This document shows, in pieces, positions 5,061-41,974 of a DNA stretch of 41,974 nucleotides. The notes below the pieces were generated by a model, which saw nothing but the letters and a program-made list of their open reading frames with translations, had not been told where the DNA came from and made no database searches. This stretch comes from Escherichia coli. GTDB taxonomy: Bacteria > Pseudomonadota > Gammaproteobacteria > Enterobacterales > Enterobacteriaceae. The stretch lies in NCBI GenBank assembly GCA_026712335.1, contig GCA_026712335.1_4695.1; one strand, written 5' to 3'. Positions within the stretch are counted from its first letter, which is position 1; each line of letters opens with the position of its first letter. The position numbers were made by a program, and so were the translations under genes.

Positions 5061-5443
5061 GTCACAAAGGGAAATCACTATCTCACTCTGTTTAGCAGTC
5101 CCTGNCCCCCCCCCTATGGCCTCCTTCAGTCCACCCAAAGAGCCTTCCTCTATGGTAACTCATGGTTTACCTGAAGTCAATCCTTTTGTGAGACATTGGG
5201 TTAACTCTAGGTGTAACCACTAGATATGGTGCTTAGTGATACCTTATGACCACTATATGTAGTCCTCTCTGTGTCCCTATCTGTAAGTGACCCTAGAGTT
5301 ATCACCTTATGTCACCTCCTTATGTCTATCCTTATGGCTGCCTATCCTTATGTTAACCTTCAGTCAGTGCCTTATGTTTATCAGTGACCAATAGGCTTCG
5401 TCACAAAGGGAAATCACTATCTCACTCTGTTTAGCAGTCCCTG
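4767..5443. repeat. Direct duplicate 4767..5104 = 5106..5443 with N at 5105, beginning at a C9 homopolymer (scaffold overlap or doubled terminal repeat)
   Basis: Read directly; copies differ by one SNP (T at 4889 vs G at 5228). Confidence 0.85.
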
Positions 5444-5516
5444 AGTGATGAGAGGGACAAGTAGAATCGACTGAGTGCCTATAGTGCCTTAAAGGTGGCT
5501 GATAGTCAATAGCCTT

Positions 5517-5539
5517 TAATGCGACTCACTATTGAGGAA
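5517..5539 (+). promoter_or_regulatory. Phage RNAP promoter-like element (phiOL-like, origin-associated)
   Basis: TAATGCGACTCACTATT GAGGAA; deviates at -13 and +2. Confidence 0.6.
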
Positions 5540-5570
5540 TAGCTAATACTGGTCATCCTCTCTTTATGTC

Positions 5571-5600
5571 CACTATAAGAGACTATAAGAGACTATAAGA
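5571..5600. repeat. Tandem 10-bp repeat (C/G)ACTATAAGA x3 downstream of the phiOL-like promoter
   Basis: Read directly; position corresponds to the T7 primary origin region. Confidence 0.7.
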
Positions 5601-5640
5601 CCACTTAAAGAGAGACTTTGAGATTCTTTAAGATTGAGGG

Positions 5641-5669: not shown

Positions 5670-5775
5670 AGCAACCGTTGAGAGACACAGCGCTACCAAC
5701 CACTAGACAAGACCTAGAGTTATCTGGTGAGGCGGGAATGTCTCAAGTAGTCATCAACCAGACACACGAAAGTGG

Positions 5776-5804
5776 TTGACTCAACGAAAGCAATAACGTA
5801 GTAT
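5776..5804 (+). promoter_or_regulatory. Putative host sigma70 early promoter (A2-like)
   Basis: -35 TTGACT, 17-nt spacer, -10 TAGTAT. Confidence 0.65.
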
Positions 5805-5814
5805 AGCAGTCGTC

Positions 5815-6267
5815 AACAACTGGTCGCCCTCTGAAACAACATGAGGTGTCACGGTGAGAAACAAAAGTAGTTGACAAGTAGCAACAACAAGATGTAAGAT
5901 GTACGACATAACGTTCTTGTGAAGTCCTACACTGAAAGGGACTCGGTGCTAACAAACCTGCACTTAAAGCTCTTTAACAATTTGGTGACAATAGCACTCT
6001 TGAGATGGCGGCACTAGCGATTAACTCAAGGTGACTCGAANAACAACTGGTCGCCCTCTGAAACAACATGAGGTGTCACGGTGAGAAACAAAAGTAGTTG
6101 ACAAGTAGCAACAACAAGATGTAAGATGTACGACATAACGTTCTTGTGAAGTCCTACACTGAAAGGGACTCGGTGCTAACAAACCTGCACTTAAAGCTCT
6201 TTAACAATTTGGTGACAATAGCACTCTTGAGATGGCGGCACTAGCGATTAACTCAAGGTGACTCGAA
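5815..6267. repeat. Direct duplicate 5815..6040 = 6042..6267 with N at 6041 (scaffold overlap)
   Basis: Read directly; duplicates the A3-like promoter. Confidence 0.9.
5871..5900 (+). promoter_or_regulatory. Putative host sigma70 early promoter (A3-like; duplicate copy at 6098..6127)
   Basis: -35 TTGACA, 18-nt spacer, -10 TAAGAT. Confidence 0.65.
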
Positions 6268-6292
6268 AGAGAAGCCTTTATGATAATCACTG
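6247..6292 (+). promoter_or_regulatory. Putative RNase III site (R0.3-like)
   Basis: AACTCAAGGTGACTC...GCCTTTATGATAATCAC hairpin, same family as T7 R0.3. Confidence 0.5.
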
Positions 6293-6315
6293 TAACCAAC
6301 ATCGAGGCAATCATC

Positions 6316-6774
6316 ATGATTCACACTAAAGAGCAAGCTAATGTTTTCTATGTACTGGTAAGCGCATTCCGTTCTAACCTCGACGATGAGGTCAACATGA
6401 GTCGCCACCGCCACATGGTTAACAACCTGCGCAACGCACCGGGTCTTTATGGTAGCGTTGAGTCTACCGATTTAACTGGCTGTTACCGCGAAGCCATCTC
6501 AAGTGCACCAACTGAAGAGAAAACAATCCGTGTACGTTGTAAAGACAAGGCACAGGTTCTCAATGTCGCACGTCTGGCATGTAATGAGTGGGAACAAGAT
6601 TGCGTGCTGGTCTATAAATCACAGACTCACACGGCTGGCTTAGTGTACGCTAAAGGCATCGACGGGTACAAAGCTGAACGTCTACATGGTAGCTTCCAAG
6701 AAGTCCCACGCACCGAGGCACTGAAAGGCTGCTTCACTATTGATGAGTTCGGTCGCCGCTGGCAAGTACAGTAA
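6316..6774 (+). CDS. 0.3: S-adenosylmethionine hydrolase/lyase (T3-type gene 0.3, anti-restriction)
   Basis: 153 aa from the internal ATG with RBS GAGG; strong match to T3 SAMase as recalled (ANVFYVLVSAFRSNL...YKSQTHTAGLVYAKGIDGYKAERL...FTIDEFGRRWQVQ); unrelated to T7 Ocr. Confidence 0.85.
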   Translation: MIHTKEQANVFYVLVSAFRSNLDDEVNMSRHRHMVNNLRNAPGLYGSVESTDLTGCYREAISSAPTEEKTIRVRCKDKAQVLNVARLACNEWEQDCVLVYKSQTHTAGLVYAKGIDGYKAERLHGSFQEVPRTEALKGCFTIDEFGRRWQVQ

Positions 6775-6780
6775 GTGATA

Positions 6781-6826
6781 AACTCAAGGTCGCTCAATAT
6801 GAGTGGCCTTTCATGATTATCATTTA
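6781..6826 (+). promoter_or_regulatory. Putative RNase III site
   Basis: AACTCAAGGTCGCTC...GTGGCCTTTCATGATTATCA hairpin. Confidence 0.55.
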
Positions 6827-6847
6827 ACATGCAATAGGACTAACACC

Positions 6848-7048
6848 ATGAGTAAACTTCTGGCAACATCTAAAATCAAAGGTCAATGCACTGTAACACT
6901 GCGAGAGTATGATCACGGGGCAATGGGTAGCACCTACGTTGTACGATACGGTAAACAAGTCACGCATTGGGTGAACGAGGTTTTGGCGCAGGAAGAATAC
7001 CAAGCCTGCGTGATACACCAAGCAACATGTGCAGGCTGGAATGACTGA
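6848..7048 (+). CDS. Hypothetical early protein (66 aa)
   Basis: Internal ATG of ORF 6803..7048; lies between RNase III sites in the early region. Confidence 0.5.
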   Translation: MSKLLATSKIKGQCTVTLREYDHGAMGSTYVVRYGKQVTHWVNEVLAQEEYQACVIHQATCAGWND

Positions 7049-7093
7049 TGGCGCGATTTGCACGCACTGGACAATAGCCTTTTAGTCTAACCA

Positions 7094-7140
7094 GTGATAA
7101 ACTCAAGGTCGCTCCTAGCGAGTGGCCTTTATGATTATCA
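7094..7140 (+). promoter_or_regulatory. Putative RNase III site
   Basis: AAACTCAAGGTCGCTCCTAGCGAGTGGCCTTTATGATTATCAC, identical in form to the T7 R0.5 hairpin. Confidence 0.6.
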
Positions 7141-7169
7141 CTTTTGAAACAACGCACGGGATTAATATC

Positions 7170-8491: not shown

Positions 8492-11354
8492 ATGACTAAC
8501 GTAATCAACGCACCAAAGAACGACTTCTCTGACATCGCTAACGCAATCATGCCATACAACATTCTGGCTGACCATTACGGCGCACAGCTTGCAGCTACGC
8601 AGTTACAGCTTGAGCACGAAGCGCACACCGAAGGCGAGAAGCGTTTTCTTAAGGCAATGGAACGTCAAATCAAAGCGGGTGAGTTCGGTGATAACGCAGT
8701 GGCTAAACCGCTCCTGTCATCTCTCGCACCGAAGTTTATCGAGGCGTGGAACGATTGGTTCACTGAAGTGGAAGCGAAGCGTGGCAAGCGTCCAGTAGCC
8801 TACAATCTGGTACAGAAGGTTGCACCTGAAGCTGCTGCATTTATCACACTGAAGGTCACACTCGCTTGCTTGACGAAAGAAGAGTTCACCAACCTGCAAT
8901 CGGTCGCCACTAAGATTGGTCGCAGTATTGAGGATGAACTGCGTTTTGGTCGCATCCGTGACGAAGAAGCGAAGCACTTTAAGAACCACGTACAGGAGGC
9001 ACTGAACAAGCGCGTTGGTATCGTCTACAAGAAAGCATTCATGCAAGCTGTAGAAGGCAAGATGCTTGATGCTGGTCAACTGCAAACCAAGTGGACCACA
9101 TGGACACCTGAAGAATCAATTCACGTTGGTGTGCGCATGTTGGAACTGCTCATTGGGTCTACTGGTCTCGTTGAGTTACACCGCCCGTTCGCTGGGAACA
9201 TCGAGAAGGATGGCGAGTACATCCAACTGACCGAACAATACGTTGACCTGTTATCTAAACGTGCTGGTGCACTGGCTGCAATCGCTCCAATGTATCAGCC
9301 TTGCGTGGTCCCACCTAAGCCTTGGACTTCTCCGGTCGGTGGTGGCTATTGGGCTGCTGGTCGCAAGCCTCTCTCTCTGGTTCGCACTGGTAGCAAGAAG
9401 GGACTTGAGCGTTACAACGATGTGTACATGCCTGAAGTTTACAAGGCCGTGAACATCGCACAGAATACTCCTTGGAAGATTAACAAGAAGGTTCTGGCAG
9501 TGGTCAACGAGATTGTGAACTGGAAGCATTGCCCGGTTGAAGATGTACCCGCTCTGGAACGTGGAGAACTCCCGGTCAAACCTGATGACATCGACACGAA
9601 CGAAGCGGCTCTGAAAGCGTGGAAGAAAGCGGCCTCCGCAATCTACCGCAAAGAGAAGGCACGAGTGTCACGCCGCATGAGCATGGAGTTCATGTTAGGT
9701 CAGGCCAATAAGTTCGCACAGTTCAAAGCTATCTGGTTCCCAATGAACATGGACTGGCGCGGTCGTGTGTATGNGAGAACTCCCGGTCAAACCTGATGAC
9801 ATCGACACGAACGAAGCGGCTCTGAAAGCGTGGAAGAAAGCGGCCTCCGCAATCTACCGCAAAGAGAAGGCACGAGTGTCACGCCGCATGAGCATGGAGT
9901 TCATGTTAGGTCAGGCCAATAAGTTCGCACAGTTCAAAGCTATCTGGTTCCCAATGAACATGGACTGGCGCGGTCGTGTGTATGCTGTGCCGATGTTTAA
10001 CCCGCAAGGCAACGACATGACCAAAGGCTTGCTGACGTTGGCTAAAGGTAAACCAATCGGTGTCGATGGGTACTACTGGCTGAAGATTCACGGTGCTAAC
10101 ACTGCTGGCGTGGACAAGGTGGACTTTGCAGAACGCATCAAGTTCATTGATGACAACCATGAGAACATCATGAGCGTTGCGGCTGACCCGATTGCTAACA
10201 CTTGGTGGGCCGAGCAAGATTCTCCGTTCTGCTTCCTCGCGTTCTGCTTCGAGTATGCAGGTGTGCAACACCACGGGATGAACTACAACTGCTCTCTTCC
10301 GCTGGCGTTCGATGGTAGCTGCTCCGGTATTCAGCACTTCTCCGCGATGCTCCGTGATGAGATTGGTGGTCGTGCGGTTAACCTGCTGCCAAGCAAAGAG
10401 GTACAAGACATCTACCGCATCGTAGCGGAACGTGTCAACGAGATTCTGAAGCAAGATGTAATAAATGGCACCGACAACGAAGTCGAAACCGTGACCAATA
10501 AGGACACAGGGGAAATCACTGAGAAGCTCAAGCTGGGCACGAAGGAACTGGCTGGTCAATGGTTAGCATACGGTGTTACTCGTAAGGAGACTAAGCGTTC
10601 CGTTATGACCTTGGCGTATGGTTCCAAAGAGTATGGCTTCCGTGACCAAGTGCTAGAGGATACAATTCAGCCAGCTATCGACGATGGCAAGGGCTTGATG
10701 TTCACTCAACCGAACCAAGCGGCTGGCTACATGGCTAAACTGATTTGGAACGCGGTAACGGTGACAGTGGTCGCTGCGGTTGAAGCAATGAACTGGCTGA
10801 AGTCTGCTGCTAAACTGCTGGCTGCTGAAGTCAAGGACAAGAAGACAAAAGAGGTTCTGCGCAAACGCTGTGCGGTACATTGGGTTACTCCTGATGGCTT
10901 CCCGGTCTGGCAGGAATACAAGAAGCCAGTACAGACACGCTTGAACCTGATGTTCTTAGGCCAGATTCGTCTACAGCCTACCGTGAACACCAACAAGGAT
11001 AGCGGAATTGATGCTCGTAAGCAGGAGTCAGGCATCGCACCTAACTTTGTCCACTCAATGGATGGTAGCCACCTGCGCATGACTGTGGTCCGCTCCAATG
11101 AGGTCTACGGTGTGGAATCGTTCGCACTGATTCACGACTCCTTTGGTACTATCCCTGCTGATGCTGGCAACCTGTTTAAAGCAGTGCGTGAAACGATGGT
11201 CAACACTTACGAAGAGAACGATGTACTTGCAGACTTCTATGAGCAATTTGCTGACCAGTTGCACGAATCACAGCTTGACAAGATGCCTGAGATGCCAGCT
11301 AAAGGTTCTCTGGACCTGCAAGAAATCCTTAAGTCAGACTTTGCGTTTGCCTAA
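8492..11354 (+). CDS. 1: Single-subunit DNA-dependent RNA polymerase gp1 (ORF split by duplication artifact 9564..9984; true length about 883 aa)
   Basis: ORFs 8492..9796 and 9765..11354 together are collinear with T7/T3 RNAP (PCVVPPKPW, WFPMNMDWRGRVYAV, ALIHDSFGT, C-terminal SDFAFA); removing one 211-bp copy restores frame. Confidence 0.97.
9564..9984. repeat. Direct duplicate 9564..9773 = 9775..9984 with N at 9774 inside the RNAP gene (scaffold overlap artifact)
   Basis: Read directly; copies identical; period 211 is not a multiple of 3. Confidence 0.92.
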
Positions 11355-11361
11355 CGGAATC

Positions 11362-11384
11362 TAATACGACTCACTATTGGGAGC
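11362..11384 (+). promoter_or_regulatory. Phage RNAP promoter (phi1.1A-like)
   Basis: TAATACGACTCACTATT GGGAGC. Confidence 0.8.
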
Positions 11385-27284: not shown

Positions 27285-27307
27285 TAATACGACTCACTAT
27301 TGGGAGA
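27285..27307 (+). promoter_or_regulatory. Phage RNAP promoter (phi10-like, late)
   Basis: TAATACGACTCACTATT GGGAGA. Confidence 0.85.
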
Positions 27308-39854: not shown

Positions 39855-41780
39855 ATGGCTAACAAAATTTCCACTGTACGTACTTACCCGCTGAACGGTG
39901 CCGTGAACTTCACGATTACCTTTGAGTATTTAGCACGTAAGTTCGTCCAAGTGACACTCATCGGGAAAGACCGTAAAGAGTTGGTTCTCAATCAGGACTA
40001 TCGCTTTACCACTAAGACCCAAATCACAACCTCCCGTGCGTGGACTGCTGCCGATGGTTATCAGATGATTGAGATTCGTCGATTCACTTCTGCAACCGAC
40101 CGTCTGGTTGACTTTGCTGATGGCTCAATCCTTCGTGCGTATGACCTTAACATCTCACAGATTCAGACGCTGCACGTAGCTGAAGAGGCACGAGACCTAA
40201 CTGCGGATACCATTGGTGTCAACAATGATGGTCACTTGGATGCCCGTGGTCGTAAGATTGTGAACCTAGCGTTCGCTACCAGTGACTACGATGCTGTCCC
40301 TCTGAAGCAAGTAAAAGAGCGCGAGTCGTCTGCTTGGAACGCTGTTAACAAGGCCAATGAACACGCTAACCGCTCTAACACTGAGGCTAACCGATCGCGA
40401 GATGAAGCTGACCGTGCAAAACGTGAAGCTGACCGCTCAACCCAACAGGCAGGTGTCTCTACGGCACAGGCGGTTGAGTCCAAGAAGCAAGCTGACCGTT
40501 CCAACTCTGAGGCTAACCGAGCTAAAGGTTATGCTGATAGTATGACCGCAAGTGTAGCTGAGGCCAAGAAGCAAGCTGACCGTTCTAACTCTGAGGCCAA
40601 TCGTGCCCGTGATGAGGCCAATCGTGCTGCCGGAGAAGTGACTAAGGCTGCTGCTGAGGTTGCCAAAGCCGCTGCACACGTTGCTACCGCTGATGGACAT
40701 GCTGACAGAGCCAACACTGAGGCAAACCGCTCCAAGAGTGAAGCTGACCGTGCAAAGACCGAGGCTGACAAGTTAGGGAATATGAATAACTTAGCGGGAA
40801 CCATTAAAGCGGTTAATGGTGAGAACGTTGTTTTTAAGAATGATGTTGTAGCACCCGGACAGATTACTGGTGAAAAGGAAGTAAGGGCTGGCGCAGGTCA
40901 ATCGTTTAGCGTGTTAACAAGGAACTCGTTGCAGCTTGTGAACCAGAACTTCGCTGATAGAAATATGAGGTTCTTCGTATGGGGGAATGACCAAGGACGT
41001 GCAAACGTATTTGAGTTAGGTGGTAGCGGTAATGGGTACTATATGTATATCCAGAAGGCTAACCTTAACGACACATTTTGCCAGATGCGAGTGAATGGAC
41101 ATATGGAGGCTGCTGGTGGGCTTACGGTTGGACAATCAGGTGACTTCACTGGAATCTTACAGACTCGCTCACAGAACCTGCTGATGATTAACTCTGCTCG
41201 TCGACATATTCAAATGAAAACCAGCGATAACTACACCGATGGTTATCTTTACAAAGACCCCGGCGCTGGGGCGTGGAGGCTTAACTTTGGTCAGGCAGCT
41301 AACAGGGAGTATACGTTTGATTCAAATGGTACATTAACATCCAACTCAGGCTGGTACATTCCACCAGATGGTAACTTATACATCACGAAGTATGATTCTT
41401 ACATCGACGGTTGGGTCAACAAACGCCTTGGAGAACATGCCTACAATAAAAGCGAAGTAAACAACCTAGTCAATGGACGGTTAACTCAAGCGCAAGCTGA
41501 TGGTCGATACGTCAATAAGAATGCTGGGTGGGCTGAGGTCTGGAAAGGCTCTGCTGGTGGTGGTGTCTCGGTAGGTCTCTCACAGGATGTTCGTTGGAGA
41601 ACCATCTGGATTCAGACCAATGGTCGCTGGAACGCCGTTCCTATTGGTGACAATGCGGCTTACTTCATCTCGTCTGCTGGTGGTTGGTTGAAGTTCACAA
41701 TCTCCAACAACGGCAGAACTTTCCGTAACGACAAAGACGACCGTTCAGTCCCTACGCGAATCTTAGTTCAAAACCAATAA
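39855..41780 (+). CDS. 17: Tail fiber protein gp17 (641 aa, with expanded central repeat region)
   Basis: N-terminal domain FEYLARKFV.VTLIG.DRK...DGSILRAYDLN..QIQT.HVAEEARDLT.DTIGVNNDGHLDARGR.IVNLA and C-terminal tip match T7 gp17. Confidence 0.96.
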   Translation: MANKISTVRTYPLNGAVNFTITFEYLARKFVQVTLIGKDRKELVLNQDYRFTTKTQITTSRAWTAADGYQMIEIRRFTSATDRLVDFADGSILRAYDLNISQIQTLHVAEEARDLTADTIGVNNDGHLDARGRKIVNLAFATSDYDAVPLKQVKERESSAWNAVNKANEHANRSNTEANRSRDEADRAKREADRSTQQAGVSTAQAVESKKQADRSNSEANRAKGYADSMTASVAEAKKQADRSNSEANRARDEANRAAGEVTKAAAEVAKAAAHVATADGHADRANTEANRSKSEADRAKTEADKLGNMNNLAGTIKAVNGENVVFKNDVVAPGQITGEKEVRAGAGQSFSVLTRNSLQLVNQNFADRNMRFFVWGNDQGRANVFELGGSGNGYYMYIQKANLNDTFCQMRVNGHMEAAGGLTVGQSGDFTGILQTRSQNLLMINSARRHIQMKTSDNYTDGYLYKDPGAGAWRLNFGQAANREYTFDSNGTLTSNSGWYIPPDGNLYITKYDSYIDGWVNKRLGEHAYNKSEVNNLVNGRLTQAQADGRYVNKNAGWAEVWKGSAGGGVSVGLSQDVRWRTIWIQTNGRWNAVPIGDNAAYFISSAGGWLKFTISNNGRTFRNDKDDRSVPTRILVQNQ

Positions 41781-41826
41781 GGACAACATATAGACCACGG
41801 ATGGTCTCAACAATAAGGAGGACACA

Positions 41827-41974
41827 ATGTTGTCTTTAGATTTTAACAACGAGGTAGTGAAGGCTGCACCGATTGTAGGGACAGGCGTAGCCGATGGTGC
41901 TGCCCGTCTGTTCTTCGGCCTGTCACTCAACGAGTGGTTCTATGTAGCCGCAATTGCCTACACAGTGGCTCAAA
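41827..41974 (+). CDS. 17.5: Holin gp17.5, 5' fragment (wrap-around copy of 544..691)
   Basis: Identical to the start of ORF 544..750; window ends inside the gene. Confidence 0.85.
   Translation, partial: MLSLDFNNEVVKAAPIVGTGVADGAARLFFGLSLNEWFYVAAIAYTVAQ

Follow-up and report, generated by a model that had tools for sequence, protein, structure and literature searches.

In a survey of the BASEL collection published in 2021, gp0.3 was found to be Ocr in Teseptimavirus but, in all the other genera tested, a SAM hydrolase like that of T3, and type I restriction-modification was largely ineffective on the phages examined (PMC8594841); the Berlinviruses in that set are Bas67 and Bas68 (CarlSpitteler and ErnstBeyeler). 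The T7 Ocr, a DNA mimic, occupies the same locus and is likewise an early counter to type I restriction (PMC8594841), although the protein is unrelated to the SAMase and acts by another mechanism. The T3 enzyme (PDB 7OCK and 8BB1) has been dissected by mutagenesis and cryo-EM, which identified E68, Q94 and D95 as important in SAM binding and catalysis (bioRxiv 10.1101/2023.02.27.530186; eLife PMC7877911) and placed the contacts with the host SAM synthetase MetK at the N-terminus (I2, T4 and K5) and in the Q103/T104 loop (bioRxiv 10.1101/2023.02.27.530186; PMC7877911). The environmental phage enzymes Svi3-3 and Orf1 belong to the same Pfam family and catalyse the same reaction, acting as unimolecular lyases that produce methylthioadenosine (MTA) and homoserine lactone (PMC7877911), but that paper, on which we rely for the comparison, finds them barely recognisable as similar to T3-type enzymes. 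Within the subfamily, early genes have been described as the most diverse part of Studiervirinae genomes (2020; PMC7693777), and the paper on phage Kvp1 reported in 2008 that T3-like 0.3, 0.6 and 0.7 genes stand alongside Berlin-like promoters (PMC2579914).

An earlier note on the DNA analysed here, a stretch of 41,974 nt that we call the window, had combined a T3-like gene 0.3 with T7-type promoters and polymerase specificity, and had read the genome as mosaic, in its early anti-defence module, between the T7 and T3 lineages. We ran megablast searches with each half of the window against 50,697 phage records. The Escherichia phages nasanit, 285P, BA14 and CarlSpitteler, Enterobacter phage PZJ0206 and others matched at 93–96% nucleotide (nt) identity over 73–98% of each query half, and the taxonomy lines of the records place all the matched phages in the genus Berlinvirus. 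By nucleotide identity, the window represents a Berlinvirus genome of the BA14/285P/Kvp1/PZJ0206 group (Studiervirinae) in circularly permuted form. Genome-wide identity, the RNA polymerase (RNAP) and the promoter consensus TAATACGACTCACTAWTGGGAGA are all those typical of the genus. The window falls outside the T7 lineage (Teseptimavirus), with an RNAP 76% identical, other early genes 39–71% identical and no Ocr, and likewise outside the T3 lineage (Teetrevirus), with no match to T3-type promoters, N748 in its RNAP and an RNAP identity of 75%.

The sequence looks like a set of overlapping contigs that were left unmerged. It contains six single-N positions (340, 1243, 5105, 6041, 9774 and 38186), each flanked by exact or near-exact duplicates of 202–338 nt, and its ends overlap (341–691 equals 41624–41974). 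The stitching artefacts split gene 1, give a host promoter a second copy (5871/6098) and make the sequence about 1.8 kb too long. The features discussed below are collected in Table 1.

Table 1. Features of the window at gene 0.3, in the early region, in gene 1 and at the phage promoters.
Feature	Position	Strand	Basis or remark
phiOL-equivalent phage promoter, TAATGCGACTCACTATTGAGGAA	5517..5539	+	matches BA14 phiOL in distance from the left end
Best-matching sigma-70 early promoter before 0.3, TTGACA-18-TAAGAT	5871..5900	+	consensus scan, 10/12 matches
R0.3-like candidate hairpin (RNase III type) before 0.3, weak	6240..6292	+	resembles the 6772–6831 hairpin
Shine-Dalgarno GAGG	6305..6308	+	7-nt spacer to the 0.3 start codon; read from the sequence
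Gene 0.3, SAM lyase (T3-type SAMase)	6316..6774	+	ATG-to-TAA ORF, 152 codons + stop
Probable in-frame internal start 0.3B (Met28)	6397..6774	+	GAGG at 6388–6391; homology only
Crossover interval inside 0.3	6670..6700	.	mismatch maps, 51-nt block identities, 150-nt nearest-neighbour scan
RNase III-type hairpin after 0.3 (R0.5-like)	6772..6831	+	−24.8 kcal/mol, z = −4.4, 0/200 shuffles as good
Small early gene, 66 aa, phrog_6500	6848..7048	+	PHROG 1e-44; variable 0.3–0.7 interval
T7-0.6A-like small early gene, 45 aa	7170..7307	+	83% nt, 89% aa to T7 0.6A; phrog_8393 at 4.6e-28
Gene 1, single-subunit RNA polymerase	8492..11354	+	883 aa after removing artefact 9774–9984
Specificity loop, residues 739–770	10917..11012	+	alignment to T7 and T3
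phi1.05-equivalent phage promoter, TAATACGACTCACTATTGGGAGC	11362..11384	+	matches annotated BA14, Kvp1 and FE44 phi1.05
Remaining 14 phage promoters (starts)	4180, 11986, 12510, 13871, 13979, 14860, 16621, 18648, 19480, 23744, 26291, 27285, 31746, 39784	+	

The call of gene 0.3 at 6316–6774 in the earlier note was right, and so was its reading of the first early gene as a T3-like SAM-degrading enzyme and not Ocr. The product matched the Pfam family PF23780 (S-AdoMet_lyase) with E = 9e-43 and 145.8 bits, well over the cut-off of 28, across profile positions 1–132 of 133, and PHROG 2226 at 3.5e-53. On a database search it aligned along its full length with the T3 SAM lyase (7OCK_L/8BB1; E = 3.4e-91, about 91% identity, residues 1–152 on 1–152), a protein of the same length that is also encoded by the first early gene. 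Among aligned positions, the T3 residues I2, T4, K5, G55, Y57, E67, E68, Q94, D95, Q103 and T104 are all present, so that the catalytic and MetK-contact residues defined by mutagenesis are common to both proteins; the Gly/Tyr pair (G55 and Y57) is equivalent to G56 and Y58 of Svi3-3. The context of the putative internal start, EVNMSRHRHM, is the same in position and sequence as that of T3 0.3B, annotated as an 'in-frame internal initiation' CDS at 982–1359, and the Shine-Dalgarno of this start is likewise conserved. Differences from T3 amount to 13–14 substitutions (F3H, P7Q, C23D, S36N, T37N, A40N, V71I, A81V, P124H and a cluster at 132–137), and the two genes share only 82% nt identity, with dN of 0.076, dS of about 1.05 and dN/dS of about 0.07. 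Judged by these rates, 0.3 is under purifying selection relative to T3, and, judged by homology, gp0.3 is a T3-type SAM-degrading enzyme of the phage SAM lyase family. RefSeq records and PHROG 2226 call this family 'SAM-dependent methyltransferase', a wrong function that is spreading to new phage genomes.

The hairpin that follows gene 0.3 showed blastn similarity to T3 R0.3 and to T7 1429–1482, whereas the fold of the R0.3-like candidate before it, at 6240–6292, was not significant (z = −1.44). A third copy lies at 7067–7143, before the 0.6A-like gene, and resembles T7 1408–1480 (88%) and T3 R0.3/R0.5. The second copy of the sigma-70 promoter, at 6098–6127, is inside an artefactual duplicate (6042–6267 equals 5815–6040). 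The stretch from 0.3 to the kinase gene showed no homologue of Ocr; its ORFs encode the phrog_6500 protein and the T7-0.6A-like protein, and Rfam and tRNA scans across the window gave zero matches. The phrog_6500 gene is common to PZJ0206, nasanit, P483 and the Teetrevirus SH2. Variability in the early region is greatest in the 0.3–0.7 interval: downstream of 0.3, the window carries the phrog_6500 gene and the T7-0.6A-like ORF, unlike BA14, 285P, Kvp1 and FE44, which have a T3-like 0.6A there.

By analogy with T3, gene 0.3 would be first on the early transcript, made by the host RNA polymerase from left-end sigma-70 promoters, and the flanking RNase III-type hairpins would process that transcript around it. 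The protein would break SAM down into MTA and homoserine lactone; it would also bind MetK and thereby block SAM resynthesis. Lyase activity and the MetK block together are predicted, again on the T3 model, to collapse the SAM pool needed by type I restriction and BREX. The phage RNAP and its promoters are those of the Berlinvirus lineage, which has the −17 to −5 consensus and an N748-type loop in common with T7 but no greater overall similarity to T7 than to T3.

We found 16 phage promoters in the window, all on the plus strand and with at most six mismatches in 23 to the T7 consensus; the consensus of the window promoters themselves is the genus-typical one given above. The T7-type CGACT block that the earlier note had reported stands at −12 to −8 in 11 of the 16, and a search for the T3-type core across the window gave no match. 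The 16-nt core ATACGACTCACTAWTG, allowing up to two mismatches, was matched 15 times, against 0.04 expected by chance. From −17 to −5 the promoters read TAATACGACTCAC, identical to T7. The window consensus departs from the class III promoters of T7 at −1, with T in place of A; Berlinvirus promoters have T at this position throughout (CACTATTGGG or CACTAATGGG; for example, 27285–27307), versus A in T7 (CACTATAGGG).

Gene 1 appears as two ORFs because the assembly is faulty there: an N stands at 9774, and the 210 nt after it are an exact duplicate. Once reconstructed, the RNAP has 883 aa and one terminal stop, with the length and numbering of T7 RNAP. Its identity is 96–99.5% to the RNAPs of 20 Berlinvirus members, 76.3% to T7 and 75.4% to T3; by these values it is a third lineage, equidistant from T7 and T3. 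Residues R746, N748 (codon AAC at 10944), R756 and Q758, which we take to be the established specificity residues from the T7 RNAP–promoter structure, are all of the T7 type, and the AT-rich recognition loop reads EAKRGKRPV versus KAKRGKRPT in T7. The substitution N748D switches T7 RNAP to T3 specificity; residue 748 is D in T3, SH2 and IME305, where it is flanked by K745, M749 and I750. Resemblance to T7 RNAP ends with an overall protein identity of only 76% and with the loop differences I743V, F755I, I761V and E768G. The T7-like RNAP specificity asserted in the earlier note thus holds on the four residues, but the motif quoted for it does not discriminate. That motif, VNTNKDSG (10983–11006, residues 761–768), differs at two positions from both T7 (INTNKDSE) and T3 (INTLKDSG), and we rejected its use to mark T7 specificity; the two types are told apart by N748 and the residues flanking it.

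We examined how common the combination is in 20 sampled Berlinvirus genomes. All of them have the identical specificity loop, TRLNLMFLGQIRLQPTVNTNKDSGID, and TAATACGACTCACTA promoters with the CGACT block, and 18 have a SAMase at 0.3. Half of the genomes had been picked from the whole-genome match list blind to SAMase, and nine of these ten proved positive. In Yersinia phage Berlin (540–1279) and Salmonella phage PC127, tblastn in the early region found neither a SAMase nor an Ocr homologue; Berlin, which lacks the SAMase gene, is the type phage of Berlinvirus. Homologues of the SAMase are found in 471 phage records and with at least three promoter types: in Berlinvirus CGACT, alongside N748; in Teetrevirus ACCCT, alongside D748; and in Przondovirus KP32 GGTAG. 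The presence of a SAMase is independent of promoter type. The enzyme is found in T3 with a polymerase that recognises ACCCT and in the window with one that would recognise CGACT promoters.

The window allele of 0.3 is itself a composite. From nt 1 to about nt 368, it is 98–100% identical to the alleles of 285P, Kvp1 and BA14, and from about nt 373 of the gene to at least position 8500 of the window the sequence is 99–100% identical to PZJ0206. Fisher tests of the mismatch distributions on either side of the crossover gave p = 1e-21 and 5e-6. At the protein level, residues 1–127 are identical to those of BA14 and 285P, whereas the last 25 residues, EVPRTEALKGCFTIDEFGRRWQVQ, are those of the PZJ0206 allele and not the RIPKGAPIQGCFTVDEFGKYWQVA of BA14, 285P, Kvp1 and FE44, phages of the same genus with the same promoters and an identical RNAP specificity loop. 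The join of a 285P-type 5′ part to a PZJ0206-type 3′ end points to exchange among Berlinvirus alleles, or possibly to an assembly chimera. By the identities on both sides, the mosaicism that this recombination-prone early module shows in the window lies within the genus Berlinvirus. Each half of the chimeric gene occurs in isolated, viable phages; that a gp0.3 combining the two is functional is a prediction.

Across the genus, SAMase alleles are 69–93% identical to that of the window, compared with 96–99.5% for the RNAP, and the 0.3 locus is therefore unusually variable. In phage P694, a SAMase (5157–5615; 83% identical to that of the window) stands in tandem with a T7-type Ocr (5698–6060; 94% identical to T7), indicating that Ocr and SAMase are not mutually exclusive. 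The P694 SAMase joins a PZJ0206-type N-terminal part to a T3-type C-terminus. The 0.3 of nasanit (5080–5538) is 94% identical to T3 in nucleotides and 98.7% in amino acids, versus 70% nt for its RNAP gene, which indicates a recent replacement of the 0.3 allele from Teetrevirus to Berlinvirus. It is possible, though we hold this only tentatively, that Berlinvirus 0.3 is a diversifying, recombination-prone anti-defence hot spot, whose alleles are shuffled, replaced (nasanit), lost (Berlin and PC127) or stacked with Ocr (P694).

The mosaic between the T7 and T3 lineages proposed in the earlier note found no support in these comparisons. If recent, it would consist of a T3-lineage anti-restriction gene grafted onto a T7-lineage transcription system, and several observations look that way: gp0.3 is 91% identical to the T3 SAMase when neighbouring genes are only 48–75% identical to T3, the promoter consensus from −17 to −5 and residues 746, 748, 756 and 758 equal those of T7, and a transfer of this kind is clear in the sister phage nasanit. 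The RNAP, however, is outside the T7 lineage, about as far from T7 as from T3 and close to those of other Berlinviruses, and the window 0.3 has merely 82% nt identity to T3 and agrees over most of its length with the 285P, Kvp1 and BA14 alleles. A recent transfer of 0.3 from T3 to the window was thus rejected, unlike in nasanit, as this identity and a dS of about 1.05 make the gene old relative to T3. Synonymous divergence (pS) from T3 is nevertheless lowest in 0.3 (0.57, versus 0.64–0.93 in genes 0.7, 1, 1.1, 1.2, 1.3 and 1.6); we estimate the gap to gene 1 at about 2.4 standard errors, and either strong constraint or an ancient exchange between genera could account for the low value. The earlier note had itself allowed that its mosaic would fall if the phage belonged to a clade where the combination is standard. 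Berlinvirus is such a clade, since SAMase with CGACT promoters is present in 18 of 20 genomes and was published in 2008 and 2021. We regard a recent T7–T3 mosaic as highly improbable, and we are strongly confident that SAMase with CGACT promoters is the norm of the genus and that the window 0.3 is that of an ordinary Berlinvirus, not of a T7 × T3 hybrid.

Two further readings concern the chimeric allele. It could be an artefact of assembly, joining sequence from two Berlinvirus strains that occurred together, and not biological at all, since the window is visibly stitched, with its six single-N junctions, duplicated flanks of 202–338 nt and overlapping ends. The exact 152-aa gp0.3 sequence is, moreover, on record nowhere else, being absent from an index of 153 billion genes, and no phage record searched exceeded 93% identity across the entire gene. 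The crossover, however, is away from the N junctions, the nearest of which are at 6041 and 9774, isolate genomes such as P694 show comparable intragenic shuffling, and the reading frame and conserved residues are all intact; we consider an assembly origin rather unlikely, if still worth bearing in mind. The swapped C-terminus could also have weakened the lyase, leaving gp0.3 mainly as a MetK inhibitor or with some other SAM-independent anti-defence role. A catalytically dead T3 SAMase (E68Q/Q94A) retains partial anti-BREX activity through MetK binding (bioRxiv 10.1101/2023.02.27.530186), and over the last 25 aa there are 4 differences from T3 and 10 from BA14. We give this very little credence, however: the residues known to matter in catalysis are all conserved, the isolated phage PZJ0206 has the same C-terminus, and the low dN/dS extends across the gene. 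The reading that we retain is that of a SAM lyase allele probably formed by exchange within Berlinvirus.

For annotation, the phage belongs under Berlinvirus, and the proper label for its 0.3 is SAM lyase, anti-type I restriction and anti-BREX, and not 'SAM-dependent methyltransferase'. In Studiervirinae, promoter type varies independently of whether Ocr or a SAMase is present, so that the combination cannot be used for calling a T7/T3 hybrid. The pairing of SAMase with T7-like promoters is already known for Berlinvirus, and the only new elements are a minor chimeric allele and the hypervariability of 0.3 within the genus; beyond correct annotation, the significance of the locus is small. The diversity of 0.3 alleles within the genus offers a modest lead for the evolution of phage counter-defence. 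If 0.3 were indeed a hot spot, and if it were driven from the host side, for instance by MetK variants or SAMase-sensing defences, the chimeric allele of the window would be a snapshot of an arms race.
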